Below are positions 2,398 through 51,016 of a stretch of DNA of 64,000 nucleotides, one piece after another. Source of the DNA: Acinetobacter phage YMC13/03/R2096; sequence record KM672662.1, one strand, 5' to 3'. Positions within the stretch are counted from its first letter, which is position 1. Each line of letters opens with the position of its first letter. The position numbers and the translations under genes were made by a program. Below the pieces are notes generated by a model that searched no databases, was not told the origin of the DNA, and worked only from the letters and a program-made list of their open reading frames with translations.

Positions 2398-2634
2398 TCA
2401 GATCTCTTCCAAGTCATCATAGCCTGTTAGGAGTTTCTCAGATGGCATTTCTTCCACAGATAACTCCCCACATTTTGAACATTCTAAGGTTATTACAGGC
2501 ATCTCTATCCCAAATAACTCATTGAATTCCTTACCACTTTCCTTAAAAATCAAAACACCAGAACCTTTACAGGACCCATTGGTGTGTTTTACAGGTTTAT
2601 CTTTCATAAACACCATCCATGAAAAAGAGGGCAC
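2398..2634 (-). CDS. small hypothetical protein
   Basis: 78-aa ORF. Confidence 0.4.
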   Translation of the reverse strand: MPSFSWMVFMKDKPVKHTNGSCKGSGVLIFKESGKEFNELFGIEMPVITLECSKCGELSVEEMPSEKLLTGYDDLEEI

Positions 2635-2652
2635 TAAGCCCTCAATTTTTAA

Positions 2653-3075
2653 TTAAATATCATACCGAACTCTAATTATCTCACGCTTATCAAGATCTGT
2701 CAAGATACCATAAGCATAACAATTATTCTGTATGTAATTGTCAACAGTTTGAATATTGAAGGATACCCACCTTGGTGACTTACCCTCACTAATTGTACAC
2801 AATAAGCAACTACCATTTCGTATGTGTAGAACAGTCAACATTCCTTCAATACTAACCATCCAGTGTGTAGCAGATTCTAAGTGCTCTTTACGACCCACAA
2901 ATGTTCGAACAACAGATGAATGGACACTTTTCATCTGAATGGCACCTAGAAAGCTGTTGTGCATGACTAATCTAGGTTTCCCACACTGGTATTGACCATT
3001 GTTATAGCTAGTTACACCCTTTAAAGCCATCATCCACCCCAAATTGTTATACAAACCATAAGGACAGTATAACAA
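2653..3075 (-). CDS. hypothetical protein
   Basis: 140-aa ORF. Confidence 0.45.
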   Translation of the reverse strand: MLYCPYGLYNNLGWMMALKGVTSYNNGQYQCGKPRLVMHNSFLGAIQMKSVHSSVVRTFVGRKEHLESATHWMVSIEGMLTVLHIRNGSCLLCTISEGKSPRWVSFNIQTVDNYIQNNCYAYGILTDLDKREIIRVRYDI

Positions 3076-3230
3076 ACAATTCCTGTACAGACAACAAGAG
3101 CAGTATATTTATTCAAAATAAAAACCCCCACATTAGTTGAAGTAGTTTAAACCCAACAAAGGCAAAACCTCCCATAATAACCGATATCACAAGCATACCT
3201 ATAATCATCACAACTATTTTCCAGTTCATG

Positions 3231-3464
3231 TTAATCCCCTTTAGTTGTACCTACATTCTTACCACATAAGAATGCATAAAGCATGACAGGTGCCCAGAAG
3301 AACATAACAAATATGATTATCAGTGATAAAGCAAATGAATTAACAGCTTGTTTTTTCTGTGCTCGATCCAACTTAATCATAACTGCCAGCTTACCAGCAT
3401 TAAAGCAACCGTACATCAGATATAAAGAAACTAAAAAACTTAACGTGTCAGTATTGATCATCAA
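3231..3464 (-). CDS. small membrane protein
   Basis: 77-aa ORF with two TM helices. Confidence 0.4.
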   Translation of the reverse strand: MMINTDTLSFLVSLYLMYGCFNAGKLAVMIKLDRAQKKQAVNSFALSLIIIFVMFFWAPVMLYAFLCGKNVGTTKGD

Positions 3465-3478
3465 TTATCTCCAAAAGA

Positions 3479-3775
3479 TTAATGTTTATGTATGAAGTTT
3501 AAATCACCTAGATTTTTAATGCAAGCATCAATTGTAGCTTGTACACGCTTGTCTAAGGCTTCTAAATCATTTAAGTCACTAGATATTACCTCCATGAACT
3601 TAACACGCTCTAAACAAGCCTTAACAGTCGAGAAATAACCTATAGGTGTTCTTCGAATTTCACCCTCTTGCTTTCCACTTTTTGCAATACTTAAGCTGTA
3701 CAAGATGAAATTCATATCATCCGAACCTAAAGCATAACCTACTTGATCTTTTGTAGGTTCTTTTAACACCTTCAT
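3479..3775 (-). CDS. hypothetical protein
   Basis: 98-aa ORF. Confidence 0.45.
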   Translation of the reverse strand: MKVLKEPTKDQVGYALGSDDMNFILYSLSIAKSGKQEGEIRRTPIGYFSTVKACLERVKFMEVISSDLNDLEALDKRVQATIDACIKNLGDLNFIHKH

Positions 3776-3820
3776 CTTACTCTCCTTGTAAAAATCTTTC
3801 AGGCAGTTGATATGGAATCA

Positions 3821-4192
3821 TTATAAACCTCCAAGGTGTCCTGATTTATGAATTAATTCTGATACAAAACCTTTCAACTCTTCCGATACCTGACCAGACT
3901 CTAATCTCTTCTTATAAGAAACCTCAAGGTCAGAAATAGTGACTCTATGTAAATCTTTATACACTGTGTCATGTTCTCCATAATAACCATACCACAATCT
4001 ACAAGCATATACTATAAAGAAATCTACATCTGTTTTTTTAGATATCTCAACATTGTTTCCATCTCTTGGTTGCGCCCACTTCCAACCAAGACCATGAATT
4101 AATGCAAGTATGTAAAGCTTTTCACTAGGTTTCATACCCTGAACAACAATTAATTGATCATCATTCACACAACTTCTCCCAACAAGAATCAA
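3821..4192 (-). CDS. hypothetical protein
   Basis: 123-aa ORF. Confidence 0.45.
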   Translation of the reverse strand: MILVGRSCVNDDQLIVVQGMKPSEKLYILALIHGLGWKWAQPRDGNNVEISKKTDVDFFIVYACRLWYGYYGEHDTVYKDLHRVTISDLEVSYKKRLESGQVSEELKGFVSELIHKSGHLGGL

Positions 4193-16050: not shown

Positions 16051-16136
16051 GGGTGATGTTGGGGTGTTGGTCAACCCCATCAGACTGTAAATCTGACGTG
16101 AAAGCTGTCTAGGTTCGAATCCTAGATCACCCACCA
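16051..16136 (+). tRNA. tRNA-Tyr (GTA)
   Basis: Acceptor GGGTGAT/ATCACCC. Anticodon loop is ctGTAaa. Long variable arm. T-arm is GGTTCGAATCC. CCA is encoded. Confidence 0.8.
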
Positions 16137-16139
16137 AAT

Positions 16140-16214
16140 AGTACCTTAGTTCAGGGGTAGAACGCAGAACTGATAATTCTGAGGTCGATGGTTCGAAACC
16201 ATCAGGTACTACCA
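16140..16214 (+). tRNA. tRNA-Ile (GAT)
   Basis: Acceptor AGTACCT/AGGTACT pairs perfectly. Loop is ctGATaa. CCA is encoded. Confidence 0.8.
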
Positions 16215-16243
16215 ATTTAAAAGTTTTTAAAAGTTTATTCAGG

Positions 16244-16315
16244 TCTAGTGTAGCACAACGGTAGTGCAGCAGACTGTTAATCTGTTGGTTGTTGGTTCGA
16301 ATCCAGCCTCTAGAG
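16244..16315 (+). tRNA. tRNA-Asn (GTT)
   Basis: Loop ctGTTaa, D-stem GCAC/GTGC and G73. The acceptor has one mismatch and no CCA is encoded. Confidence 0.55.
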
Positions 16316-17057
16316 CCTGAGTAAATTAAGAATTACCCTTCGGGGTATGGGTCGTGTATAACCCTTAGATAAACTGCAAAACAGTATAAAGTCGTAACGG
16401 CAGTTATGGCGCAGAGTAAAAATCTGTCAAGTACACACTCAAGGTATCATACTTATGTGGCGTAGAGCCAATCGGTGTAAACCATTTAAGTATGGGGGTG
16501 TAATGCTCCTGAGTCGATAGGCAATAAGAGAACTTGAAGGTATCTAGCGAAGTTGATTGTCAAGTCAAAACGCTGTTTACCATTGTGAGAGGTATATAGA
16601 GTTTAACAGGTGGTGCTGAATCTCGTAGTCCTAAACCAAGTGGACAATATATGCTTGAAACATCGTGCATGGTAAAGCACATTAGGTAGTGTGGTATTGA
16701 TGGGTTCAAAAGATCTGTTAGCCACAGAGAAACCACTATCTATGCAATACAAATTTCATTTTAGGAAAAAATTAAATTCAAAAGTGTTTCTCACGTTGGC
16801 ATGAAAGGTGCTTACATAGTAATGGGTTGTCCATTGCACATTTAACCTGAAAGGTTATTTGTATTTTCATGAAAGGATTATGTTTGGTAGGCATACTAGC
16901 ATAGTTTGAGTATTGGGAGAGTAGTTCCAACGTCTAAGAGTGGTTAGCTATACTGACCAGCACTGATCACTACTATATAAAGTATAGTGGATAATGAGGG
17001 AAAAGATAATCCTCTCAAGGTGGTCATTTAAACGTGTAATCTCAGCGTTTTACTTGT

Positions 17058-17132
17058 GGCTCTGTAGCATAGTGGATTATGCGCCTCCCTGTCTAGGAGA
17101 AAAACGCCAGTTCGAGTCTGGTCAGAGTCGCC
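17058..17132 (+). tRNA. tRNA-Asp (GTC)
   Basis: Acceptor GGCTCTG/CAGAGTC. Loop is ctGTCta. G73. CCA is encoded. Confidence 0.75.
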
Positions 17133-17136
17133 AGTA

Positions 17137-17211
17137 TTGTCGTATAGTGTAATGGTTAGCACAGAAGACTTTGACTCTTCTAGTTTAGGTTCGAGTCCTA
17201 ATTCGACTACC
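17137..17211 (+). tRNA. tRNA-Gln (TTG)
   Basis: Anticodon stem GAAGA/TCTTC pairs perfectly. Loop is ctTTGac. T-arm is TTAGG-TTCGAGT-CCTAA. The acceptor has one mismatch. Confidence 0.6.
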
Positions 17212-17214
17212 AAA

Positions 17215-17290
17215 TGGGTCACTAGCACAATGGTAGTGCAGTTGCTTTGCAAGCATCAGGTTAAGGGTTCGAGTCCCTTGTGTATCCACC
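17215..17290 (+). tRNA. tRNA-like element, anticodon probably TGC (Ala). Acceptor pairing is poor.
   Basis: D-stem GCAC/GTGC, loop ttTGCaa, T-arm AAGGG-TTCGAGT-CCCTT and a CCA end. Only 5 of 7 acceptor base pairs could be formed by hand. Confidence 0.35.
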
Positions 17291-17292
17291 AA

Positions 17293-17368
17293 TATTCCAT
17301 TCGACTAGCGGTTAGGTCGCTTCCCTTTCAAGGAAGTAGCACGAGTTCGAATCTCGTATGGAATACCA
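17293..17368 (+). tRNA. tRNA-Glu (TTC)
   Basis: Acceptor ATTCCAT/ATGGAAT pairs perfectly. Stem CTTCC/GGAAG. Loop ctTTCaa. CCA is encoded. Confidence 0.8.
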
Positions 17369-17370
17369 AT

Positions 17371-17447
17371 AGGACGTTAGCTCAGTTGGTTAGAGCAAGA
17401 GCCTTTTAAGTTCGAGGTCATAGGTTCAAATCCTATACGTCCTACCA
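17371..17447 (+). tRNA. tRNA-Lys (TTT)
   Basis: Acceptor AGGACGT/ACGTCCT pairs perfectly. D-arm is GCTCAGTTGGTTAGAGC. Loop ctTTTaa. CCA is encoded. Confidence 0.8.
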
Positions 17448-17452
17448 ACAAT

Positions 17453-17526
17453 GGTGACTTTGGTGTAATGGTTTGCATCACTCCCTGTGAAGGAGAAGGT
17501 CAGGGTTCAAATCCCGAAGTCACACC
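17453..17526 (+). tRNA. tRNA-His (GTG) with G-1
   Basis: Loop ctGTGaa. Acceptor GTGACTT/AAGTCAC is preceded by an extra G. CCA is encoded. Confidence 0.65.
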
Positions 17527-18225
17527 AAGAATTTTAAGAATTTCAAACGAGTAGAGGTACAGTCCTGAAAGTTTGAAAGTGGGGCGACACCTGCCTGAAG
17601 TAGTAGCTAATAATGGCCTGTTAGTGAATCTAAGTGGTGTGACTTAACTGACTTGGAGAGAAAGGTCGGGGCAGAGCACAAGTAGCTGAGATGGATTAGC
17701 GCTACCCTGAAGAGGTTGAGAGGTTGGATCGTTACCAACATTGTGCACCAAATTTTTAAAAGAAGAATTATTTTAGGATTACCATAACCTAAAGGCTCGA
17801 AGGGGCGGTCTGCAACATCGTTGTTGGTGAGTTGAAGTCTCACATGGTAATCCAAAGTGATTTTTATAGAGGTTAAACCAGATAGGTTCTGGGACACCCT
17901 GCTAAGGTGATCGTGTTAGAAATAGCATTCGGATCGAGACCGATGGCCTCTGCCAAATTTGTTGTGCGCTCCACAGGTTGATCCTGTTACGGTTATCCTC
18001 AAGACCAGACCGCAACAAAGCAACATCAATGGCTTGTCTAAAGTAACGCTGTTGATGGGGCAAATGCAGACACCGATTCGCCTCTGACCTAGTTAAGCAC
18101 ACTAATCGGTTTTTTCTTAGGGCTATTGGACAGGTAATTACCCCTCCTTTAGTTACGACAAGATATCTTCGTGGCTCGCTACCTTGAAGGCATCCCAGTT
18201 AGGGTTCTGGTTAAAAACTCACTAC

Positions 18226-18300
18226 AGTCCCTTAGCTCAATCGGGAGAGCAACACTCTTACAAGGTGAAGGTAGTAGGTTCGAAACCTACAGGGACTACC
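18226..18300 (+). tRNA. tRNA-Val (TAC)
   Basis: Acceptor AGTCCCT/AGGGACT pairs perfectly. Loop ctTACaa. T-arm is GTAGG-TTCGAAA-CCTAC. CCA is encoded. Confidence 0.75.
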
Positions 18301-18301
18301 A

Positions 18302-18391
18302 AGGTGGGTAGCGTCAAGGTGACAAAGCGGGCTTGAACCCCGTGCCAATTGTGATGAGCAGTTGAGAGTTCGATTCTTTTACCCATCGCCA
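18302..18391 (+). tRNA. tRNA-Ser (TGA), class II
   Basis: Acceptor GGTGGGT/ACCCATC. Stem GCGGG/CCCGT. Loop ctTGAac. Long variable arm. G73 and CCA. Confidence 0.6.
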
Positions 18392-18392
18392 A

Positions 18393-18466
18393 GCGTTTAT
18401 AGTGTAGTGGTAACACCCTGTACTTCCAATTCAGTATCTTCGGTTCGAATCCGAATAGACGCTCCA
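18393..18466 (+). tRNA. tRNA-Gly (TCC)
   Basis: Acceptor GCGTTTA/TAGACGC. Loop ctTCCaa. T-arm is TTCGG-TTCGAAT-CCGAA. U73 and CCA. Confidence 0.75.
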
Positions 18467-18477
18467 GATTATGTTTA

Positions 18478-18600
18478 TGGACACTTCCTAAGGTTCTTTC
18501 TACAGGTTCGAAACTGTTTTAAGAATTGCTGGTGCTAGGTTTAGCGTCAAGAATCATTCGAAGGGTTCTTGGGGTGGTGAGTTCGATTCTCACAGTGTTC
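18478..18600 (+). ncRNA. aberrant 123-nt tRNA-like element
   Basis: GGACACT pairs with AGTGTTC on 7 of 7 positions, enclosing about 110 nt. Inside are two T-arm-like hairpins (ACAGG-TTCGAAA-CTGT and GTGAG-TTCGATT-CTCAC) and a 6-bp stem CAAGAA/TTCTTG. There is no canonical anticodon arm and no CCA. Confidence 0.3.
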
Positions 18601-18619
18601 CCCCTATTTTAAAGTTTAT

Positions 18620-18696
18620 CTCTGTGTAGCTCAGTTTGGTAGAGCACTCGCTTTGGGAGTGAGGGGTCGTAAGTTCAATTCTTACTACAGAGACCA
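18620..18696 (+). tRNA. tRNA-Pro (TGG)
   Basis: Acceptor CTCTGTG/TACAGAG. Stem CTCGC/GTGAG. Loop ttTGGga. T-arm is GTAAG-TTCAATT-CTTAC. CCA is encoded. Confidence 0.7.
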
Positions 18697-18783
18697 GTTA
18701 TGAAGTGTTTGTACAGCTATCAGCTCACCGTTTAAAGGATACGGACAAGTCGGCTCGACTAAAGACTCACTTCATATGTTTTT

Positions 18784-18860
18784 GGGTAGTTGAAGGGAAT
18801 GGCATACCTTTCACGCTTAGAACGTGAAGTTTCTGAGTTCGAGTCTCAGACTACCTACCA
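18784..18860 (+). tRNA. class-I tRNA with anticodon TAG, presumably Leu (CUA/CUG)
   Basis: Acceptor GGGTAGT/ACTACCT. Stem TCACG/CGTGA pairs perfectly. Loop ctTAGaa. Variable loop is 5 nt. A73 and CCA. Confidence 0.6.
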
Positions 18861-18866
18861 AATTCT

Positions 18867-18942
18867 GGGGATATAGCCCAACGGCAGAGGCAAGAGGTTT
18901 AAACCCTCTCAAGTTTCAGTTCGAATCTGAATATCCCTACCA
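18867..18942 (+). tRNA. class-I tRNA with anticodon TAA, presumably Leu (UUA/UUG)
   Basis: Acceptor GGGGATA/TATCCCT. Stem AGAGG/CCTCT pairs perfectly. Loop ttTAAac. Variable loop is 5 nt. T-arm is TTCAG-TTCGAAT-CTGAA. A73 and CCA. Confidence 0.6.
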
Positions 18943-18957
18943 GTTTAGGAGTGCTAC

Positions 18958-19239
18958 ATGGAAGTATTACTTGTTAGTGATTGTAGATGCCAAGAGCGTT
19001 ATGACTTTGCAGATATTGTAAAGGATGCTCAAGAACAAGGTATCAAAATTAAGTACACATTAGTTCCTAAGAAGATATCCTATGAAGATAGAACTTACAC
19101 ATTTGTTAATGTTGAAGATCTCACTAAGGATAAAAGTTGTATTGTTGGTAAGAAGTTTGATGATGTCTATTTGACACCAGAAGCTAAAGATGCTATACCT
19201 TTAGGGTTGCTATCATTTATACTTACAAGAATACGTTAA
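18958..19239 (+). CDS. small hypothetical protein embedded in tRNA cluster
   Basis: 93-aa ORF. An AGGAG site lies 8 nt upstream of the ATG. Confidence 0.5.
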   Translation: MEVLLVSDCRCQERYDFADIVKDAQEQGIKIKYTLVPKKISYEDRTYTFVNVEDLTKDKSCIVGKKFDDVYLTPEAKDAIPLGLLSFILTRIR

Positions 19240-19246
19240 GTTTTAA

Positions 19247-19334
19247 GTCCCTACACCCTCCAAGAGCCTTCTAAGCTCTCGACATTAAATAGGGGGAAGG
19301 TAGTCAGAGTGTTCGATTCACTGTGGGGACTCCA
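19247..19334 (+). tRNA. atypical tRNA-like element, anticodon TCT (Arg?). It has a rudimentary D-arm and a 27-nt variable region.
   Basis: Acceptor GTCCCTA/TGGGGAC and stem AGAGC/GCTCT pair perfectly. Loop ctTCTaa. T-arm is GAGTG-TTCGATT-CACTG. CCA is encoded. Confidence 0.4.
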
Positions 19335-19335
19335 A

Positions 19336-19411
19336 GCCGAATTAGCTCAGTTGGTAGAGCAGCGCACTTGTAATGCGAAGGTCGTAGACTCGGATTCTAC
19401 ATTCGGCACCA
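19336..19411 (+). tRNA. tRNA-Thr (TGT)
   Basis: Acceptor GCCGAAT/ATTCGGC pairs perfectly. D-arm is GCTCAGTTGGTAGAGC. Loop ctTGTaa. T-loop is CTCGGAT. CCA is encoded. Confidence 0.75.
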
Positions 19412-19417
19412 TATTTA

Positions 19418-19507
19418 GGTCGTGTAGCTTAAAGAAAGCAAGAGGATTTATAAACCTTTTCACTAGATAAGTGCTTGATGTGGGGGCAGTACCCACCACG
19501 ACTACCA
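19418..19507 (+). tRNA. class-II tRNA-like element with a 9-nt anticodon loop (AUUUAUAAA); identity unresolved
   Basis: Acceptor GGTCGTG/CACGACT. D-stem GCTT/AAGC. Stem AGAGG/CCTTT encloses the 9-nt loop. Long variable arm. T-arm is GTGGG-GGCAGTA-CCCAC. A73 and CCA. Confidence 0.4.
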
Positions 19508-19509
19508 AT

Positions 19510-19579
19510 AAGTCCCCCTCTGGGAGGGAAGAGGTCTCCAAAACCACTTAGCTGTGTTCGATTCACAGGGGATTTGCCA
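19510..19579 (+). tRNA. tRNA-Trp (CCA), short 70-nt form
   Basis: Acceptor AAGTCCC/GGGATTT. Loop ctCCAaa. T-arm is CTGTG-TTCGATT-CACAG. G73 and CCA. The D-arm is compact. Confidence 0.55.
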
Positions 19580-19729
19580 AATTAGATTAAGATGTTGGTG
19601 CGTGACAACCTTAATCGGCATGATTTTAGTTTATGTCGATGTGATAAACATGGCTAGATAGATATGTCGATAAAAACTAGAAATTAAAACACGTAGTATT
19701 GAAATGTTAAAAATAATTAAACAAAACAC

Positions 19730-19758
19730 TTGACAAATAGATTTTTAGTGTTATATAT
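19730..19758 (+). promoter_or_regulatory. promoter (TTGACA, 16-17-nt spacer, TATATA/TATAAT) upstream of tRNA-Met and thioredoxin
   Basis: Near-consensus -35 and -10 elements. Confidence 0.5.
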
Positions 19759-19783
19759 AATATATAAGCAATTAAGTTTTCAT

Positions 19784-19858
19784 AGCGAGGTAGTGTAACG
19801 GTTTGCACAGGGGACTCATAATCCTCTGGTTTGGGTTCGAATCCCAACTTCGCTTCCA
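19784..19858 (+). tRNA. tRNA-Met/fMet or Ile2 (CAT)
   Basis: Acceptor AGCGAGG/CTTCGCT. Stem GGGGA/TCCTC. Loop ctCATaa. T-arm is TTGGG-TTCGAAT-CCCAA. CCA is encoded. Confidence 0.7.
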
Positions 19859-19878
19859 GTTTCGGAGGATCAATTATC

Positions 19879-20193
19879 GTGTATTTAGAACTAGTAGAAA
19901 ATGAAGCATTTAGCCAGATTGGTACAAACCGAAAGGTTATCTTCAAATTTGGTGCAAAATGGTGCTCTGGTTGTAAAGCGATAACTCCAGTCCTCAAAAA
20001 ATTATCTGAACAAAATCCTGATATTGTCTTTGTAGATATCGATATTGAGCAATCGAAAGGACTAGCTGAAAGATTTAATGTTCAGACCTTACCAACTTTC
20101 ATATCTTTCCAAGAGTCCTTAAAGAAGGATACCATTGTAGGTACTCCTAAAATTACTCAGTTGAAAGAAATGATCACAAATATGCAAAAATAA
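19879..20193 (+). CDS. trx: thioredoxin
   Basis: Active site WCSGCK within a Trx fold. GTG start at 19879 lies 8 nt after GGAGGA. The track ORF starts earlier and overlaps the tRNA. Confidence 0.75.
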   Translation: MYLELVENEAFSQIGTNRKVIFKFGAKWCSGCKAITPVLKKLSEQNPDIVFVDIDIEQSKGLAERFNVQTLPTFISFQESLKKDTIVGTPKITQLKEMITNMQK

Positions 20194-20240: not shown

Positions 20241-20408
20241 TCCAACCCCACTAACCAAATAACTGTTATGGATGACACAAGTCAATAATAGGGAATAATT
20301 AAGGTTAGTGGGTTTTCTTATTTATAATGACATTTCGTGTAGATTTAAGAGGTGGTGCTTACTTGTCCTAGGCATCACCCCTTAAGTTATCAACATAGAG
20401 GACAAGCT

Positions 20409-20903
20409 ATGGAAGAAATTTGGAAGCCTGTTGAAGGTTTTGGTGGCTATGAAGTTAGTGATTTGGGTCGTGTACGTAAGGTTGACGGAACTATTGTTAA
20501 TCTATTCAACCATCCGCAAGGATACCTAAAAGTAGCCCTTAAGGTTGCTGGCCAAAAGGTTAGTAAGAAGTACGTGCATAGGCTTGTAGCTGCTGCATTT
20601 ATACCTAACCCAGACAACCTTCCTTATGTAAATCATAAGAATGGCAAGCAGTGGTGTAATGAGGTTGATAACCTTGAGTGGATATCCTCTAAAGATAACC
20701 ATACACATGCTCGTGAGACTGGTCTTATTGACTATTACAAGTCACACCGAGTAGTTTCTGTCGAGGATGTACGATACATACGTAAGCATATAAAACCTTA
20801 CGATAAAGAATTCGGTAATGGTGCTATTGCAAAGCGATTGGGCTTAAGCCGAGACCAAGTTACTGACATTGCCCTGTACCGGAATTACAAAGACGTGATA
20901 TAG
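20409..20903 (+). CDS. free-standing HNH homing endonuclease
   Basis: EVSDLGRVR..., a NUMOD4-like N-terminus, and YVNHKNGKQWCNEVDNLEWISSKDNHTHA (HNH_3). ATG at 20409 follows AGAGGA. It sits immediately upstream of the intron-containing terminase gene. Confidence 0.7.
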   Translation: MEEIWKPVEGFGGYEVSDLGRVRKVDGTIVNLFNHPQGYLKVALKVAGQKVSKKYVHRLVAAAFIPNPDNLPYVNHKNGKQWCNEVDNLEWISSKDNHTHARETGLIDYYKSHRVVSVEDVRYIRKHIKPYDKEFGNGAIAKRLGLSRDQVTDIALYRNYKDVI

Positions 20904-20912
20904 GAGGTATTA

Positions 20913-20990
20913 ATGTCGAATATATTTGCACCGTGTAGTCCAGTGCAAGCAAAGTTACTGCAAAGTGATGCAACAATTACAGTTTATGGT
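20913..20990 (+). CDS. terL: terminase large subunit, exon 1 (MSNIFAPCSPVQAKLLQSDATITVYG)
   Basis: ATG follows AGGAGG. The frame hits TGA right after ..VYGG and a group I intron follows. The exon end is approximate, 20990 or 20994. Confidence 0.6.
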
Positions 20991-21312
20991 GGGTGAATAT
21001 AGGCTCCTTTAAGTAGTAATACTTATCGAATAACCTTGTGAAATGCTGGAAACCCCTTAGAGCCTTGAGTACCGAAGTGTAACAACCTTAAGGATTGGGC
21101 AATCAGCAGGGAAGCCTCTTATTAGAGGAACCCTCAACGACTATCGAAAGGGTAACGAACCGAGTAGAGTAGGGGCAAGTGTCCCGAAGTGCAAGGCACC
21201 TCAAGTAGGTGAAGATATAGTCTGGACTCATGGGAAACCTTGAGCATGCAATTGGCTAATGTGCTGTTGCATGGGTTGGCTCTAACGAAGCCTTCTTAAC
21301 ACAATCACTATG
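20991..21312 (+). ncRNA. group I intron 1 in terL (ORF-less, about 320 nt)
   Basis: Contains conserved group I core elements: an R-like element CAACGACTAT and an S-like element GAAGATATAGTCTG. It also has the blocks CCTTTAAGT..ACTTATCGAATAACC, GAAATGCTGGAAACCCC and CAATCAGCAG, which are shared with intron 2 and with the nrdB intron. It ends ..CACTATG (omega-G). Confidence 0.65.
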
Positions 21313-21382
21313 GGGTCTGCGAAAACCTATGGAGGTCTACTAAGACACCTTCAATATGTAAATAGTCCTCATTATGTTGGGT
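21313..21382 (+). CDS. terL: terminase large subunit, exon 2 (GSAKTYGGLLRHLQYVNSPHYVG, P-loop region)
   Basis: A 23-codon open frame lies between the two introns. GSAKT preceded by exon-1 YG gives a Walker-A-like segment. Confidence 0.55.
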
Positions 21383-21631
21383 GAAAATACATGCCCCTTT
21401 AAGTGGTGACACTTATCGAATAACCCCTCTAATTGCTGGGAACCCTCTTTGAGGCAATCAGCAGCCAAGCCCAGCAGGGAAGGTTCAACGACTATTCCGA
21501 CAGGAAGTACACTCAAGTGAGTGGAAACGGGGGGCATCTCGCAGAGATGATGATATAGTCTGATCTACATGGTGACATGTAGCAAGGTTAAAACCTTGGA
21601 GTTAGCTTAACGAGCTAACACTAACAAAATG
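21383..21631 (+). ncRNA. group I intron 2 in terL (ORF-less, about 250 nt)
   Basis: Begins GAAAATACATGCCCCTTTAAGTGG..ACTTATCGAATAACC. Contains GCTGGGAACCC, CAATCAGCAG, CAACGACTAT (R) and GATGATATAGTCTG (S). A terminal hairpin is followed by ..AACAAAATG (omega-G at 21631). Confidence 0.65.
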
Positions 21632-22905
21632 ATGTTATCCGTAAAAATGAAGTAGTTCTGAGGGCTGGTGGTGGTGCTTTTGAAGAAGCCAAAGCTTTAT
21701 ACAAGGCATTTGAGCCGAGAGTTAAAATCACAGAGAAACCTATGAGGTTTCGCTTTCCTTCTGGTGCTGTAATTAACTTTGCAGGTGCTGAAGATGAGAA
21801 AGCTATGGAAAAATATCGTGGTCTTAACTTGACTGGCGTGATGGTCGATGAAGGTACACAGTTATCAGAAAGACAAATTTGGTTCTTGATCTCTCGTTTG
21901 CGTAACGGTAAAGATCCAAACATTATGCCAAATATATGGATTACATGTAACCCTGACCCTGATAGTTATTTGTTTGAATGGGTTAAGTGGTATTTATATC
22001 CTGTAGGGCATCCTCTTGCTGGAAGACCTGATAAAGATAAGAATGGATTAAAAAGATATTTCGTATCGACTCCAGAAGGTTTAGTTTGGAGTGATAATGA
22101 ACAGGAATTACTTGATAAGTATCCGCATTTATTTACAAAAGGGACTAGACCACTAAGCTTTAGATTTATTGGTGGTACAGTTTACGATAACCCACCTCTT
22201 CTTAAGAACTCACCTCAATATCTTCAAAACCTACTCCAACAGAAAGACCGAGTAGTGCGAGAACGTGAGTTGTACGGCAACTGGTTTGCACGTAGGGAAG
22301 ATTCAAGTTACTTCAACAGGTCTTGGTGTGAGATAGTTGATAAGCCTCCTGAAAGGGTCCGTAAAAGGGTTCGTTCTTGGGACTTGGCTTTCACATTACC
22401 AACTGAGACAAACCCAAACCCCGATTATACCTGTGGTGTTCGTCTGAGTAAAGATGATGAAGGTACAATCTATGTTGAAGACATGGTTCTTGAAAGGGTT
22501 GGTTCTGGGCAAATTATTGAGTTAATTGCAAAGACTGGTCTAGAAGATGCTGAGATGTTTGGTGTTGTTGAAACAACAATCCCTCAAGATGCTGGTGGTA
22601 TGGCTAAATTTGCAGCTAGGGATATGGCCTCTAAGCTAAGAGAGCATGGTGTATCTCCTATTGTAGTTCCTGTAGGTAATAAAGGCAAGCTCGTTCGTTT
22701 TATTCCATTCTCAGGTGCAGCACAAAATAAACATGTGAAGATTGTACGTGGTGATTGGAATGCAGCCTTCTTTCATCAGTTAGAAGCTTTTGGAAGTGGA
22801 AATAAGGCTGTGCACGATGATGCTGTCGATGCTGTTGCTGATGCTTATAAAAGAGTAGCAGAAAATAGAACGATTGACTATGCCATCGACTTAGCAGTTT
22901 TATAA
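21632..22905 (+). CDS. terL: terminase large subunit, exon 3 (ATPase Walker B and nuclease domain)
   Basis: ..VIRKNEVVLRAGGGAFEE..LTGVMVDEG (Walker B), plus a C-terminal RNaseH-like nuclease region. The frame is open only from 21625. The spliced product would be about 473 aa. Confidence 0.75.
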
Positions 22906-22916
22906 AGGAGTAGTCA

Positions 22917-23009
22917 TGGCTATAAATGAAGTACAAACAGTTTCTGGTTTCAGTGATACTGGGATGGTTGTTAAAAAACGTGTTAGAAGAAAAAACTCGA
23001 CCCATTAAA
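22917..23009 (+). CDS. small ORF (30 aa) between terL and portal
   Basis: AAGGAG RBS, then an ATG. Very short. Confidence 0.25.
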
Positions 23010-23055
23010 CGTTGAGTTAGGTGTTCATGGTAATACCTTCAAGGATTTAACTGAA

Positions 23056-24417
23056 ATGAATTGGGATGCTCTAACATACCCAACAAGCCTTGAAACATAC
23101 AAATTAATGGGCAAACATTTAGTTATCTCTTCAGCACTTAATCTAATTTCAACCATGATGGCTAGGGTTCCTTGGAGAATTGAAGCTTACGAGCCTAAAG
23201 AGGCTGATATGAAGAATGCTAAATTTATCACTGAAGTGTTTAATGACATGGATGAAGGTTGGCAGACTTTTATTTCAGAAGTATCAACAATGAACCAATA
23301 TGGACATTCTGTTCATGAGATTGTTTTAAGATACAGAAGATTTGAGGAAGGTTCACGATACAATGATGGTAAGATTGGCCTAAAATATTTACCAATCAGA
23401 TCACAACACAGTATTGCTGAATGGGTTTATGACCCTAATGGTAGAACCTTGCTAGGTATCACTCAGAAGATTCCTCAAACTAAAAAATATATGGGTTATA
23501 AAGAAAAAGAGATCTTTATTCCTATTGAAAGTCTCTTAATTTTCAGAGTCAATCCTCAAGATGGTAGCCCTATTGGGACAAGCCCTTTAGATGGATGTTA
23601 TAGTGCTTGGAGATACTTGGTAACTTATCAAGAAATTGAAGGTACAACTGTTAGTAAAAACCTTAACGGTGTGGGTATTTTTAAAATCCCATCTAAGTAT
23701 ATGGCTGAGCATGCCACTCCAGCAGACCGAAAGGTTTATGAGAATGCAAAACGTATTGTTTCTAATGTGAACAATGGCGAGCAAGCTGGTATGGTTATCC
23801 CTTCAGATTTTGATGAACTTAGTGGTAAGCCTTACTTTGGTTTTGAAGTTATTAACTCTACAGCATCTAATACATCTGTTACAGGTGAGATTGTTAAAAG
23901 ATACACCAATGAAATTCTTCAATGCTTGAGTGCAGATTTATTACAACTTGGTTCTACCAATACTGGTTCTTACTCTCTTGCCGATAGTAAAACTTCTCTA
24001 GTAGAAACTGTAGTTGAATCTCGTATGATGGTTATTAAAGAATTAATGAATAGGAAGTTAATTCCAATCATTGCAGAAGCTAATGGTATGGATTTAGAAA
24101 GACTACCTAAATTTGAATTTGGTGATATCTCTAGACCAGACCTTGAGACTTTCGCTAAGGCAATCCAACAACTTACTGCTGTTAATATGGTATATCGCTC
24201 AGCACGTAATGTCAACAGAATTGCAGAGATTCTAAGTCTTCCTGACATGGTTGACCCTGATATCTCTAAAGAGGAACTTGACAAGTTACTTGGTGTTGAC
24301 CAAGAAATGCAAAGTAAGAGTGGTAAAGGTTACGCTTCTGATACTGGTGGACTTAATGGAACATCAAATAAAGTAGCTAAGAAGGATAACTCAGCAAATA
24401 ATTTACAAAATAAGTGA
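23056..24417 (+). CDS. portal protein
   Basis: 453 aa. It lies directly after terL and before the protease. Call rests on position and size. Confidence 0.6.
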   Translation: MNWDALTYPTSLETYKLMGKHLVISSALNLISTMMARVPWRIEAYEPKEADMKNAKFITEVFNDMDEGWQTFISEVSTMNQYGHSVHEIVLRYRRFEEGSRYNDGKIGLKYLPIRSQHSIAEWVYDPNGRTLLGITQKIPQTKKYMGYKEKEIFIPIESLLIFRVNPQDGSPIGTSPLDGCYSAWRYLVTYQEIEGTTVSKNLNGVGIFKIPSKYMAEHATPADRKVYENAKRIVSNVNNGEQAGMVIPSDFDELSGKPYFGFEVINSTASNTSVTGEIVKRYTNEILQCLSADLLQLGSTNTGSYSLADSKTSLVETVVESRMMVIKELMNRKLIPIIAEANGMDLERLPKFEFGDISRPDLETFAKAIQQLTAVNMVYRSARNVNRIAEILSLPDMVDPDISKEELDKLLGVDQEMQSKSGKGYASDTGGLNGTSNKVAKKDNSANNLQNK

Positions 24418-46106: not shown

Positions 46107-48878
46107 TTATTGACAGTTATCACATTCTTCATGTCGCTTAATATCACCAGATCCCCTCATAGAGTAGATGTAATATAAAGCTAAGATACCTGCATTTTCC
46201 AAAGCATATTTGTGAACCTTCATAATATACTCTGGAGTGTCATTACTTGTAAAATACAAGTTGATTGACTGTTGCTGATCAATATATTGTTGTCGTTGTG
46301 CACACAAATCCAAATGTTTGATCATGTCAATCTCAAAGGCAGTTCTAAAGACATCCTTCTCATGCTGAGTCAACCAGTGAACATGTTGTACAGAACCTTT
46401 ATGCTTATTGATGTCATTGATTACGTCTTCATTGTAAACACCACGTTCCTTCATGATCTCTAGAAGGACCTTATTAACCCTCCAGATATCCCCTCCAGCA
46501 CTCTGCTTAACGAACACCATTGCAACATCCAGACCAATACCTTCAGAAGCACCAGCCATAATCTCTGCTGTTGACTTTGTAGGTGGCATCATCATGGTAG
46601 TGGCATTACGGATTCCTAAATGAGCACACCCTTCAGGCATACCAACTTCACGAGCTAGCCACTTAGAAGCAGCTAAGGTTTGGTCTCTCATACCCTTAAA
46701 GATTTCTTCATTTAACCAGAAGCTCTCAAGGCTACCTACCACAATTCTACGTTTTTGTAGTAGTGTGTGGAAACCTAGTACACCTGTACCAACTGCACGG
46801 AATCTCTTGGTGAAGGCTAAGATTTTTCTAAATGCCAAGGCATCCTCTTTATCTTGAGCCATTCTCGTTTCCATGAACTCAATGTAGTCACTCACATTAC
46901 AGTCTTGCATAACATGCGCAATAAATGCTAAGTGAGGACATCTTGATTTCCACTCATCGTATAAGTCAAGGTTCAAGTTTAGAATTACACAAGAGAATGT
47001 ATGCTTCTCATCACTACCAAGTAACACTTCTTGGCAATTCATTGTATTCAAACCATTGAACATCAACATGTTACGTTTTGGCTCAAGTGCACAATATGTA
47101 TCATCAAATCTTCCTTGGTCGATCACTTCATCAACACATACAAATCTTTCAGCAGAACGTTGAGGTTTTCTTTCACTCCATTTTAGGCGGTGTGTTTTTA
47201 AACCTAACTGACTCAACTTAAAGAGACCTGTACTCGATACAAGAAGACGATAAGCATCTTGGCATTCATACAGTCCTTTATCACCTGTACCATTATTGAG
47301 AGGTAATTCTTTTAGACCACCTACATCCCTCAAGACAACCTTTGAAGAAACACCAAGTGTTTGTAACATCAATTGCACATCTTGTAAGAATGTCTTGTGA
47401 ATGCTTACCACTTGGATAGATTCATTTTCACCATTACGAGCAATAGTTCCATCTGAATCTAGGAGTCCAGCAAACCATTCCAATCGGCTTTCAACAGTGT
47501 ACTCAGATGTTGGTACAAAGAATTTATCCTTAAGCCCTTCACTGTGAGTAAGCTTAATACGATCACCACCTTGAAGTCCTGACACTGAAGAAACGCAAGT
47601 TATATTTTCAAGTAACTCCTTCTTCTTACCATACAAGTATGTGTGTTTTTTACCTTTGTATTCAAAACCATCACCAGTGAAGAATCCATTAGTGTAAGCA
47701 TGTCCGAGGGTCTTGTCACCTAAAATAACTGGTAGATCAAATTTAGATAGTCGATCACCAGACTTCAACTCGTAGGCACGTTTAATGACCTCATTGCCAT
47801 CCTCACCAACAACCTTAAAGCGGTGATACTCTGTGCAATCTAATTCATACCCTGAATCAGTTACCACTTTAACTAACTTCTGATTTTCACCAGTTTTGAT
47901 AATTGTCACTTCAGACCATTCAAAACCATTCCACACCTCGACCTGTTGTCCCTCAAGGTCAGAAATCGTTTGATATCCACCTTTAGTTAAGATTAATGTC
48001 TCAGGTGCAACACACAAATTAGAAGCTTTCGCTGTCATACCTGCATCTTTAAATGCCTGAGCTAAGTGGCGGTTCATTTCATCAATCTTAGTGAAGTAAC
48101 CCTTACCACGCTGCATCTTGATAGCAATAGCTTTAGCTAATAGGGCAACTGCTTCTGGGTCATCCTTGACTAACTTCTCAATGTACTCGTCCTTACATAA
48201 CCATGCTGGGTTATTACTTTCAGGTCGTTTGAATAGGTACTTTAAAACTTCCTCAAACTCAGGATGTTCAATACTAACAGCATAAGATAAACTACCTCTA
48301 CGGCTACCTTGAACAACCTCATCCATACAATTAATCAAGTCACGAATGACAGGCATCACCCCACCACCATAACCACCTCTAGGCAGTTTCTTACCTTTAT
48401 AGGCCCAGTCATCAACTGAGTAAGATGTACCATGCGAGTGCTTAGTCAAGATACCTGCTTCAGTCACACAATCGTAACGAGAGAACAAGTTGTCACCAAC
48501 ATAACCACCAGCACAACTTACTGTTGACCCCCTTTCAGGTAAACCACTGTTCGCCAATAAAGGAGTTGAACAAGACACATAACCATCCCAAAGTACGTCA
48601 AAAAACACTTCCTCCCAAGTTTTACCAGCCGTATAAGTATCCACATTCCACCAAGAAGGGTACTTATCTGGTGCATGTTTAGCTAAAGTCTTAGCAATCA
48701 TTTTATAGCGAGATTTTACAGTCTCACCATTCCAAGAATATTTTTCAAAGAACAATTGAGTACCACCAGTGGTAAACCATTTAGGGATCTCTCCATGTTC
48801 TTGTAGTTTTTTTCTGAGTTGACTGTAACTATCAACCCCGTATAATTCCAATGTTTCTAAATAAGATAAAACAGCCAC
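46107..48878 (-). CDS. nrdA: ribonucleotide reductase large subunit (class I NrdA/NrdE-like) containing an intein
   Basis: N-terminal ATP-cone-like region. The active-site motif ASNLC is interrupted after the Cys and resumes as CQEVLL. The C-terminus carries the CxxC tail ECDNCQ. Confidence 0.85.
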   Translation of the reverse strand: MAVLSYLETLELYGVDSYSQLRKKLQEHGEIPKWFTTGGTQLFFEKYSWNGETVKSRYKMIAKTLAKHAPDKYPSWWNVDTYTAGKTWEEVFFDVLWDGYVSCSTPLLANSGLPERGSTVSCAGGYVGDNLFSRYDCVTEAGILTKHSHGTSYSVDDWAYKGKKLPRGGYGGGVMPVIRDLINCMDEVVQGSRRGSLSYAVSIEHPEFEEVLKYLFKRPESNNPAWLCKDEYIEKLVKDDPEAVALLAKAIAIKMQRGKGYFTKIDEMNRHLAQAFKDAGMTAKASNLCVAPETLILTKGGYQTISDLEGQQVEVWNGFEWSEVTIIKTGENQKLVKVVTDSGYELDCTEYHRFKVVGEDGNEVIKRAYELKSGDRLSKFDLPVILGDKTLGHAYTNGFFTGDGFEYKGKKHTYLYGKKKELLENITCVSSVSGLQGGDRIKLTHSEGLKDKFFVPTSEYTVESRLEWFAGLLDSDGTIARNGENESIQVVSIHKTFLQDVQLMLQTLGVSSKVVLRDVGGLKELPLNNGTGDKGLYECQDAYRLLVSSTGLFKLSQLGLKTHRLKWSERKPQRSAERFVCVDEVIDQGRFDDTYCALEPKRNMLMFNGLNTMNCQEVLLGSDEKHTFSCVILNLNLDLYDEWKSRCPHLAFIAHVMQDCNVSDYIEFMETRMAQDKEDALAFRKILAFTKRFRAVGTGVLGFHTLLQKRRIVVGSLESFWLNEEIFKGMRDQTLAASKWLAREVGMPEGCAHLGIRNATTMMMPPTKSTAEIMAGASEGIGLDVAMVFVKQSAGGDIWRVNKVLLEIMKERGVYNEDVINDINKHKGSVQHVHWLTQHEKDVFRTAFEIDMIKHLDLCAQRQQYIDQQQSINLYFTSNDTPEYIMKVHKYALENAGILALYYIYSMRGSGDIKRHEECDNCQ
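47037..48014 (-). other. intein (326 aa) with LAGLIDADG homing-endonuclease domain inside nrdA
   Basis: Starts with Cys289 (CVAPETLILT). Two dodecapeptide motifs: YTNGFFTGDGF and EWFAGLLDSDGT. Ends ..LMFNGLNTMN, with Cys as the +1 residue. The joined extein reads ASNL-CQEVLL. Confidence 0.75.
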
Positions 48879-49395: not shown

Positions 49396-50251
49396 CATGG
49401 GTTGTTCAGGTGTGCTCGTTACACACACCCCGTAGAGTACTTCACCACTCAAGTACTCACAGCTTACACTTTCATGTAAGATCAGACTATATCATCACCA
49501 CAAGGTTTTACTTGTTGTGGTGCTTCCCACTTCGGTCTTACTTAAGACCTACTCCCCGAAGGGATAGTCGTTGAGGATTCTAAACCTAATTCCAACCACA
49601 AAGCTTTCCAACGTTTTTTATGCCTAATTAACGAAACATATCTACTGTGTATTCCAAAAACTCTAGAGATCTGTTTGTTAGTAAAACCTGCTAAGCACAT
49701 ACGAATAACCTTTTCAGCATCATCCTTTGTCAGTTTAACAGTCGAGTTCCTATATCTAGCACCACTTAACGAGACATTTTTATTGGGATTTTCCCAAAAA
49801 TTACGATAGTGGTGATGCACATTATCCTCTTGTTTTACAACCTCTAAATTTTCTATACAATTGTTTAGCTTGTTAGCATCAATATGATTTATTACAAATC
49901 CCTTTGGTATAACACCTTTGATGCACTCCCAAACGAATCTGTGACCATTTTCAGTCACACCATTGAATTCATATTGCCGATAACCTGTAGTTGATAAACA
50001 GCCTCTCATAAGCTGTCCTCTCTTTCCATACACATTTCCAAATACATCGCAACTGTATCCAGAAAATTTTGGATGTTTAAATTTTTCCATAATTACCTCC
50101 ATAATAAGAGGTTGGAATTAGGTTTAGCTTTCCTGCTGATTGCCCAATACTTTAGATTTTTACTCAGTGTTTAAATTTTTCAACACTTCAGTACTAAAGT
50201 CTCTAAGGGGTTTCCAGCATTTCAAGAAGTTTATTGAGGACTTGCAAATTA
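49396..50251 (-). ncRNA. group I intron in nrdB (about 856 nt) carrying an HNH homing endonuclease ORF
   Basis: On the - strand it begins TAATTTGC.. right after exon codon GAT. It contains GAAATGCTGGAAACCCCTTAGAG and GGGCAATCAGCAGG. After the ORF come CAACGACTAT (R), GATGATATAGTCTGATCTTACATG (S) and 3' hairpins. Confidence 0.65.
49542..50102 (-). CDS. intron-encoded HNH homing endonuclease
   Basis: 186 aa. Contains ..GYRQYEFNGVTENGHRFVWECIKGVIPKGFVINHIDANKLNNCIENL, an HNH motif with N and H residues, plus a C-terminal helix-turn-helix-like region. It lies between intron core elements. Confidence 0.7.
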   Translation of the reverse strand: MEVIMEKFKHPKFSGYSCDVFGNVYGKRGQLMRGCLSTTGYRQYEFNGVTENGHRFVWECIKGVIPKGFVINHIDANKLNNCIENLEVVKQEDNVHHHYRNFWENPNKNVSLSGARYRNSTVKLTKDDAEKVIRMCLAGFTNKQISRVFGIHSRYVSLIRHKKRWKALWLELGLESSTTIPSGSRS

Positions 50252-51016
50252 ATCCTCATCTAGTGCACTCTGATTAGCAATTTGGGCAATAACTTTAATT
50301 AAGTTAAAACCGTTTGTCTGGAAGCTCTTAAGGATAGCAAAGCTAGAGAATAACAAAGCTGTCTCTGTTAAAGAGAAGCACAAGCATGCAAGCATCTTGT
50401 TTTCATCTCGCATTAACCCATCTAACCATTCCATACGTTCATTGAGCACAGGGTCATCAATGTATGATGTGTAGTAATCATCGGTATCTAGTCCAAGTAC
50501 AATGTTAATCTCATTGTATGTTCGTGCATGGACCATCAACTCAATCATTGCTAAGGCAGAAGCACCAGCACGGGATTCATGTCGAGGGAATACTTTAATG
50601 AATAATCCATTCCAGAATTCATCACCAACAATTAATTCATACTGTAAGAATAAGTGTAGAACTGTTTTTACTGCATGTAGTTGCTCTTTAGTTAGCACAT
50701 ACTCAAGTTCCATCTGGTCATTCTTGACTTCCATTTCACTCTTAAACCACATCTGCTCTTCAAGCTGCTGGTCAGCAATCTCAAGAATCTTTGGGTACTT
50801 AATCTCATAGCCACTATTGGGTGATGTAATACGGGTTTGCACTAACCCAGTTTTCTCTGAATTTAGTGTTTTGTTTATTGTCACATAAACGAATTTCCCT
50901 TCAGGGTTTTTCTCATCCTTGACATTGATGATTACCTTTCCAGTTGGTGGTGGTAAAAATCCAATCTTCTCAACCTGACCTTCGGTTAAATCTACCTCAA
51001 TATTAATTTTAGACAT
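50252..51016 (-). CDS. nrdB: ribonucleotide reductase small subunit, exon 1
   Basis: VGDEFW.., ALAMIELMVHARTY (E115/H118 equivalents), SLTETALLF (E204 equivalent) and ..SALDED. Splicing to exon 2 recreates DED-LH (the E238-x-x-H241 pattern). About 100 aa of the N-terminus is non-homologous. Confidence 0.65.

Follow-up and report, generated by a model that had tools for sequence, protein, structure and literature searches.

Two small group I introns interrupt the large-terminase gene of an AM24/Herod-type Acinetobacter phage and are probably spread by collaborative homing

The large-terminase gene (terL) of Acinetobacter phage YMC13/03/R2096 (KM672662.1), a phage of the AM24/Herod type, was analysed within a stretch of 64,000 nucleotides (nt), which is referred to here as the window. 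In all likelihood, the gene harbours two small, paralogous group I introns of the phage type without open reading frames (ORFs), which are expected to self-splice and to be mobile, most plausibly by collaborative (trans) homing together with a free-standing HNH endonuclease gene upstream of terL. Direct support comes from ribozyme matches, the insertion points in the DNA, restoration of the reading frame upon intron removal, presence/absence polymorphism among relatives, the association of the HNH gene with the introns and a first exon that is diverged but synonymous. The first intron is anomalous in that it ends with A instead of G.

Both strands of the window were searched with 4227 Rfam families. 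The group I intron family RF00028 (gathering score 50) was found at positions 20975–21244 with 78.8 bits (E-value 2.4e-18) and at positions 21360–21582 with 96.6 bits (E-value 1.1e-23). These matches are real and far above chance, and they recur in phage Herod and in nine Logan contigs. The insertion points were obtained to the base from an alignment of AM24, Ab15 and Herod to the window. Intron 1 spans positions 20995–21307 of the plus strand (313 nt, starting with GAAUAUAGGCUCC and ending with AACACAAUCA, last base A), while intron 2 spans positions 21383–21631 of the same strand (249 nt, starting with GAAAAUACAUGCCCC and ending with ACAAAAUG) and has the canonical terminal G at 21631. No ORF of more than 42 amino acids (aa) lies wholly within either intron.

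An earlier sequence-only reading of this DNA had proposed that two ORF-less group I introns divide terL into three exons, with an Rfam search and an alignment with intron-less homologues as suggested checks. Both analyses bear the proposal out, as both introns exceed the gathering score and as AM24 and Ab15 fix the junctions to the base. The junction given for intron 2 (21382/21632) was exact, whereas the one given for intron 1 (20990/21313, corresponding to an extent of approximately 20991–21312) was off by 4–5 nt, the actual junction being 20994/21308. The terminal A of intron 1, the adjacent HNH gene and the presence/absence polymorphism were not part of that reading.

The R-like core element UCAACGACUAU had been noticed correctly in both introns, but the S-like element AAGAUAUAGUCUG is found in exactly this form only in intron 1 and reads AUGAUAUAGUCUG in intron 2. 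Intron 1 is approximately 74% identical to intron 2, with near-identical P2, J2/3, P4, P7 and S elements, and the two introns are, as judged from sequence, paralogous. The P7 helix is ACGACUAU/AUAGUCU in both, so that the conserved core helices (P3–P8), with the guanosine-binding G-C pair of P7 and a bulged nucleotide, are recognised in each of them. An alignment of five diverged introns (the window pair and three relatives) revealed compensatory changes in 32 of the 50 predicted pairs.

The gene starts with ATG 20913, which is preceded by an AGGAGG Shine-Dalgarno sequence, and the frame meets a TGA (20994–20996) after 27 codons. The main TerL frame has a TAA at 21622–21624 and is open from 21625; both frames had been recognised before. 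Exon 1 (20913–20994, plus strand, as for the other exons) contains these 27 codons plus one base of codon S28; it ends with GGGU and encodes MSNIFAPCSPVQAKLLQSDATITVYGG. Its boundaries were set by alignment to the intron-less AM24 and Ab15. Among 58 homologues, the exon 1 residues P7, S9, Q12 and G26 reach a conservation of 90% or more, and G27 never varies. In the AlphaFold (AF2) model, exon 1 forms a helix (residues 10–17) and a strand (residues 22–27). Exon 2 (21308–21382, 75 nt) extends from the last two bases of S28 to the first base of Y53, also ends with GGGU and encodes (S)MGSAKTYGGLLRHLQYVNSPHYVG(Y), i.e. the Walker A P-loop and helix 1. The assignment of the P-loop to this short exon, made earlier from the open frame between the inserts, agrees with the AM24/Ab15 alignment and with the AF2 model, in which the P-loop is located at residues 28–32 and the helix at residues 33–44. 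Exon 3 (21632–22905) continues from the remainder of codon Y53 to the stop codon and carries Walker B, the remaining ATPase domain and the RNase-H-like nuclease domain (Terminase_6N, PF03237, 4.5e-14; Terminase_6C, PF17289, 6e-12).

In AM24 and Ab15, terL is uninterrupted and encodes 476 aa in 1431 nt. In-silico removal of the introns from the window joins GGU GGG U/CU AUG GGG UCU GCG AAA ACC and GUU GGG U/AU GUU AUC. The peptides across the two joints, TVYGGSMGSAKT and HYVGYVIRKN, are the same as in the intron-less proteins, which means that the reading frame is restored and that the spliced TerL equals AM24 TerL across both joints. The spliced product of 476 aa and database protein P0001 are reported to be 100% identical from end to end. 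Among PHROG families, the product matches PHROG 979 (terminase large subunit) with 1.6e-168, while a sequence search against the PDB yielded no match, so that a fold search was needed. The AF2 model has a pLDDT of 91.6 and its best structural matches are the TerL proteins of D6E, Sf6, HK97 and T4 (E-value of 4.6e-17 for D6E TerL, 5OEA). By sequence and fold, the protein has the N-terminal ASCE ATPase with Walker A and B and the C-terminal RNase-H-like nuclease that characterise a large terminase.

Each 5' splice site makes an in-frame UGA out of the U of the exon and the GA of the intron. Because this UGA spans the splice site, unspliced RNA would give rise to a peptide of only 27 aa, as had been anticipated from the in-frame stops at both intron starts. 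P1 is formed by GGGU/GCUC in intron 1 and by GGGU/GCCC in intron 2, in both cases with a U.G wobble; the U closing exon 1 is the partner in this pair. P10 consists of CUAUG/UAUAG (5 bp) in intron 1 and of AUGU/ACAU (4 bp) in intron 2, with the guide-side bases just 5' of the guide. Self-splicing of the pre-mRNA is expected from these features: guanosine would attack after the U of GGGU at 20994 and 21382, and ligation of the exons at 21308 and 21632 would then lead to the TerL of 476 aa. The predicted RNA junctions are GGUGGGU/CUAUGGGG for exons 1 and 2 and GUUGGGU/AUGUUAUC for exons 2 and 3, and complementary DNA over the first joint would read GGGUCUAUGGGG. With phase 1 for each intron and a length of 75 nt for exon 2, skipping of this exon (junction GGGU/AUGUU) would remain in frame with loss of the P-loop. 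For the TerL of another phage, SIOphi, an exon-skipped product was dominant (PMC11878797).

Intron 2 ends with G21631, while A21307 is the last base of intron 1, its 3' junction being AACACAAUCA/CUAUGGGG. To our knowledge, a G in the last position of group I introns (omega-G) is normally universal. The A was observed in all seven independent assemblies that contain the intron (window, Herod and five Logan assemblies), and the Herod and Logan copies differ from the window at a total of three other intron positions. Splice-site pairs were enumerated by combining 5' sites between 20960 and 21030 with 3' sites between 21240 and 21335, which resulted in 615 in-frame combinations. Defining a canonical pair by U at −1 and G at omega, 34 canonical pairs are in frame and free of stops, but the P-loop motif GG-x-x-G-x-x-K-[ST] is restored by none of them. 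Approximately 100 homologues share a fixed length of this motif, and in an alignment of 58 homologues G27, G30 and K33 do not vary. Only 20994/21308 has U at −1 and restores the P-loop, and it does so with the exact sequence of the relatives. At this site, P1 comprises 4 bp, and the first base of the 5-bp P10 is exactly C21308. J7/9 of intron 1 is GGA, of which GA can pair with the UC preceding the terminal A (P9.0); in four relatives with a terminal G, J7/9 is GAU and three of the four end with AU-G. P1, P10 and P9.0 all fit both intron junctions, including the A site.

Alternatives to splicing after A21307 were weighed against these observations. If intron 1 used a canonical 3' site after a G (20990/21313 or U20994/G21313), the terminal-G rule would be obeyed at the cost of a shortened P-loop, YGGSAKT or YGGWSAKT. 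Most related intron tails end with (A/U)UG, for intron 1 a CUAUG with GGG directly after it is present just downstream, and the 34 canonical combinations mentioned above are available. However, the CUAUGGG right after the insert is homologous to exon sequence in every intron-less allele, and the 5-bp P10 and P9.0 both indicate 21307/21308. The junction of the sequence-only reading, 20990/21313, yields YGGSAKT and thus loses three P-loop residues that the homologues keep. All canonical U/G pairs including this one were rejected, as none keeps the P-loop of the family, and we regard a canonical 3' site as improbable. Even less credence is given to retention of intron 1 with translation of TerL from ATG 21310 (448 aa, as in Herod protein QVG64131.1) and exon 1 as a remnant. 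In its favour, the viable isolate Herod is annotated with this type of start, and intron 1 does not end with the G that ligation requires. Against it, ATG 21310 has no Shine-Dalgarno sequence while ATG 20913 has a perfect one, the exon 1 peptide is unchanged despite 15 differences in 81 nt, and exon 1 holds the conserved P7/S9/Q12 motif and the beta-strand 22–27 leading into the P-loop. A P-loop ATPase deprived of strand 1 would be expected neither to fold nor to bind ATP, and removal of intron 2 would be needed in the window regardless. This start was rejected on account of the missing Shine-Dalgarno sequence, the conserved exon 1 motifs and the requirement for strand 1.

Somewhat more room, although still on the doubtful side, is left for a variant in which both inserts are group I introns, but intron 1 does not self-splice autonomously: its exon ligation would depend on a factor from the phage or the host, or would be kept slow deliberately, with the missing G throttling TerL output. 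The terminal A next to a canonical guanosine-binding site suggests a weak second step, and several introns of Bastillevirinae phages are spliced in vivo but not in vitro (PMC11878797). On the other hand, no candidate factor was identified, and with P1, P10, P9.0 and the core all intact, the ribozyme is more likely to be functional. Three further candidates were weighed by hand and dropped, as they yield a wrong P-loop or lack a basis: ribosomal bypass from GGG 20991 to GGG 21313, a frameshift after splicing at G21312, and A-to-I editing of the terminal A, the context of which is UCAC and not the TadA motif UACG. Because no canonical pair keeps the P-loop and a start at M29 is unlikely, splicing after A21307 is favoured; accurate splicing at this position, possibly slow or factor-assisted, appears to be the most likely outcome and is considered fairly probable.

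With slightly more confidence than doubt, we interpret intron 1 as a natural, functional omega-A group I intron with a canonical G-C guanosine-binding pair in P7, in which the 3' site would be set by the unusually long 5-bp P10 and a re-matched P9.0 rather than by a terminal G. Speculatively, it might have originated from an intron slide of 8 nt, from one GGGU motif of GGUGGGUCUAUGGGU to the other. Several collections were searched for additional copies or more distant relatives of the 3' tail of intron 1. A search of the phage database in distant mode found the full length in Herod only, and two IMG/VR motif scans returned introns sharing only the core. A 15-mer metagenome scan was too unspecific and left no real match after BLAST filtering, and a scan of genome contigs with the 5' junction gave two chance 21-mer matches without intron similarity. 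A literature search for natural introns without omega-G yielded nothing citable. If accurate omega-A splicing is true, omega-G would be dispensable in vivo, which challenges its indispensability for the second step of group I splicing, and the essential terL would be a natural system for measuring how omega-G is dispensed with.

Compared to Herod, the region 20300–23100 of the window shows 98.7% identity; the corresponding values for AM24, Ab15, Bestia and Mithridates are 97.7–98.8% over the shared parts. An exact-protein look-up provided further relatives, including nine more contigs from independent samples with the exon 3 ORF as well as many intron-less ones. Among these phages of approximately 98% identity, all four presence/absence states occur. 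Neither intron is found in AM24, Ab15, Bestia, Mithridates and the contigs L027–L039, only intron 1 in Herod, only intron 2 in L018, L024 and L025, and both in the window and in L019–L023. Intron 1 has 99.4–100% identity with identical ends in Herod and L019–L023 and is absent from AM24, Ab15, L018, L024 and L025. Intron 2 has 98–99.6% identity in L018–L026 and is absent from Herod, AM24 and Ab15.

The backbone (thioredoxin gene and exon 3) is 98–99% identical throughout. Exon 1, in contrast, exists as three alleles with identities of 77–85% to one another, and the 15 of 81 nt that differ between the window and AM24 alleles cause no amino acid change. Exon 2 is mosaic: the window copy matches the intron-2-only type at 74 of 75 positions, while L019–L023 have Herod-like bases at the 5' end. 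Since these mosaics differ, introns 1 and 2 were combined by at least two different crossovers. At the population level, this distribution of sequences shows the introns to be mobile, with each occurring independently of the other. In L016, a relative with 78% identity, a third site directly following G30 is occupied by an intron that shares 88% identity with intron 2, and here, too, an HNH gene lies upstream. Near-identical phages that between them show four intron states and, at a single locus, three HNH variants constitute a natural experiment on intron and endonuclease mobility, and phages of this group are being isolated against A. baumannii, which makes mixed infections easy.

The free-standing HNH gene of the window (HNH164) is located at positions 20409–20903 of the plus strand, between the thioredoxin gene (trx) and terL. 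It encodes 164 aa from ATG 20409 in an ORF that opens with GTG 20352, and 9 nt separate its stop codon from the terL ATG. The protein contains NUMOD4 (1e-09) and HNH_3 (5.6e-07) domains and matches PHROG 59 (HNH endonuclease) with 4.2e-47. It aligns over its full length to I-HmuI (PDB 1U3E; residues 5–155 versus 3–156, E-value 5.6e-12), with which it shares a NUMOD4-type N-terminal module, the HNH motif and a C-terminal helix-turn-helix. An exact-protein look-up of HNH164 gave no match. In I-HmuI, the HNH nicking endonuclease of Bacillus phage SPO1, the gene is encoded within the intron, whereas HNH164, a predicted enzyme, is encoded upstream of terL and outside both introns.

All 11 genomes with an intron have an HNH gene between trx and terL, and all 17 without introns lack one. 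Intron 1 occurs together with HNH164, intron 2 in the absence of intron 1 with a variant of 266 aa (HNH266), and the third intron site of L016 with a variant of 162 aa. The three variants are pairwise 37–46% identical; with such nearly equal divergence, a clear pairing of HNH lineages with intron lineages was not established. HNH266 (L018:1681–2481) looks like a degenerate N-terminal NUMOD4/HNH repeat followed by a complete copy, and both halves align to HNH164 and to the HNH protein of L016. Paralogous HNH genes are scattered through the tRNA region of the relatives, which is typical of free-standing homing endonucleases.

A role of HNH164 as packaging accessory, i.e. an HK97-type HNH protein aiding the cutting by terminase whose link to the introns is coincidental, was considered as well. 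HNH genes next to terminase genes are common in cos phages, and HNH164 lies directly upstream of terL. Yet 17 close relatives with identical or near-identical TerL do without such a gene, which makes this role unlikely. Moreover, the architecture (NUMOD4, HNH_3, C-terminal helix-turn-helix) is that of I-HmuI over the full length, the three variants at one locus go with different intron sites, and the scattered paralogues in the tRNA region likewise speak against a dedicated packaging function.

Collaborative homing is instead suggested as the most likely mechanism of mobility by the analysis of introns without endonuclease ORF, an endonuclease gene standing free beside the interrupted gene and the co-inheritance of HNH gene and introns. 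Between allele types, exon 1 is 82–85% identical compared to the 98–99% of the backbone; the genomes are related and represent few independent events. According to this model, the HNH enzyme would cut an intron-less terL near the P-loop codons, repair from the donor would bring in the HNH gene, the intron and a diverged exon 1, and carriers would be protected because the intron disrupts the target. On the splicing side, the step at intron 1 would be anomalous, as ligation must follow A21307 and not a G.

Several points weigh against the proposed combination of self-splicing and collaborative homing. Intron 1 ends with A, yet the guanosine-binding pair of its P7 is canonical and the same as in intron 2. 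Established ribozyme work, in which omega G-to-A changes (Tetrahymena G414A) reportedly block exon ligation, would predict that ligation is strongly impaired in intron 1. Splicing itself is inferred from DNA, and so are the cleavage site and specificity presumed for HNH164. The HNH-intron association is confounded by shared ancestry: since the genomes are related, few independent acquisitions may underlie the 11 cases. Furthermore, at least one of the introns in the window has no dedicated endonuclease, because intron 2 is present without HNH266.

Group I introns in terL as such are known, as are partnerships of free-standing endonucleases and introns. The terL intron of Lactobacillus phage LL-H is relevant in this respect. 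With the Bastillevirinae, the system described here has in common that a large-terminase core gene is split by group I introns. In terL of these phages (e.g. SIOphi and phiAGATE), one to three such introns were found and splicing was observed during infection (PMC11878797). In view of these cases and of P-loop introns and inteins in distant homologues, the earlier statement that two introns in a packaging gene are unusual was too strong. Many Bastillevirinae introns have an average length of around 800 nt and encode HNH, VSR or GIY-YIG endonucleases, whereas the introns in the window are very small and ORF-less with a free-standing endonuclease upstream. The host clade also differs, being the Gram-negative Acinetobacter here, and so does the absence of a terminal G from intron 1.

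Collaborative homing was described for the psbA intron of cyanophage S-PM2 with the free-standing F-CphI and for DNA-polymerase introns of T7-like phages (Zeng et al. 2009; Bonocora and Shub 2009, as reviewed in PMC3984707). The terL locus of the window matches those systems in that its introns have no ORF, a free-standing endonuclease gene lies next to it, introns and endonuclease gene are inherited together, and the co-converted exon is diverged. Cleavage at the insertion site was shown experimentally there, whereas it is presumed here. The enzyme of the window differs in being an I-HmuI-like HNH protein, and a single locus is contested by two introns and three alternative HNH variants. The introns also resemble those of T4 td, nrdB and sunY (subgroup IA2) in their R/S core, the extra helices between P7 and P3', the P9.1/P9.2 extensions, the short P1 with U.G and their location in a phage gene for DNA metabolism, a likeness by features and not a formal subgroup assignment. 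The T4 introns encode endonucleases (I-TevI, I-TevII and I-TevIII) and all end with G, in contrast to the ORF-less introns of the window, the first of which ends with A.

What is new is the terL locus of the AM24/Herod group, which is un- or mis-annotated in public records, and the terminal A would be remarkable if confirmed. In Herod (L001, MW316732, positions 2511–3857), the GenBank terL product QVG64131.1 is cut at M29 and comprises 448 aa from the ATG of exon 2, while annotation of exon 1 and intron 1 is missing. Gene callers fragment terL in all intron-bearing contigs, and those with intron 2 are given only an exon 3 ORF of 387 aa.

The P-loop codons of this TerL family are, on comparison of the homologous sequences, a hotspot of invasion: introns have entered at no fewer than four points across 9 nt, and inteins at two sites. 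In terL numbering of the window, group I introns are inserted after nt 81 (L040, L041, L042), nt 82 (window), nt 84 (L043) and nt 90 (L016), and inteins of other TerL homologues are located after G30 and after K33. Such a hotspot shows how different selfish elements end up in the best conserved stretches of DNA. The introns of the distant homologues, at three positions other than that of the window, are found in L040:2241–2497, L042:1–119, L043:553–778 and L016:2757–3003. The L043 intron is below the Rfam threshold with clear P1 and P10, and L040 has a second intron (3799–3990, 56.5 bits) near the 3' end of terL. TerL homologues of 639–831 aa are P0011–P0013, P0027, P0046, P0067, P0090, P0095 and P0096. 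Intein or homing-endonuclease domains (PF14890, PF05204, PF14528) were detected in P0011, P0013, P0046, P0090, P0095 and P0096, while for P0012, P0027 and P0067 an intein was called on the basis of protein length and of the sequence that follows the break in the P-loop. The insert follows GGxxG in P0012 and P0067 and GK in P0046, P0090 and P0095; therefore, inteins and introns target the same few codons.

Elsewhere in the window, 16 tRNA genes (RF00005) are located at positions 16052–19855 of the plus strand, upstream of the thioredoxin-like gene (19831–20193). A GOLLD RNA (RF02032) lies within this array at 16682–17048 (plus strand) and matches the full-length model with 217.6 bits (gathering score 150). 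A candidate third group I intron was observed on the minus strand at 49463–49693, with 43.6 bits to RF00028 (gathering score 50) and an E-value of 1.9e-9 in a 1.5-kb search. The candidate region, 49463–50248, splits the gene of the ribonucleotide reductase small subunit (ORF 50249–51016, Ribonuc_red_sm, 1.1e-22, profile positions 5–191 of 281), and an ORF of 186 aa with HNH_3 and helix-turn-helix (49542–50102) lies inside or overlaps it. The large-subunit ORF of ribonucleotide reductase (46107–48878, minus strand, 923 aa) contains an intein from approximately residue 296 (Intein_splicing; LAGLIDADG_3 at 465–517). In an unrelated, GC-richer phage contig (L017, IMGVR_UViG_3300014059_000785), the region of approximately 290–1260 has two group I S-element cores at around 850 and 1190, upstream of a likely capsid-type ORF. 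The ORF at 293–847 ends beside the first core, and this arrangement suggests a structural gene with several introns.

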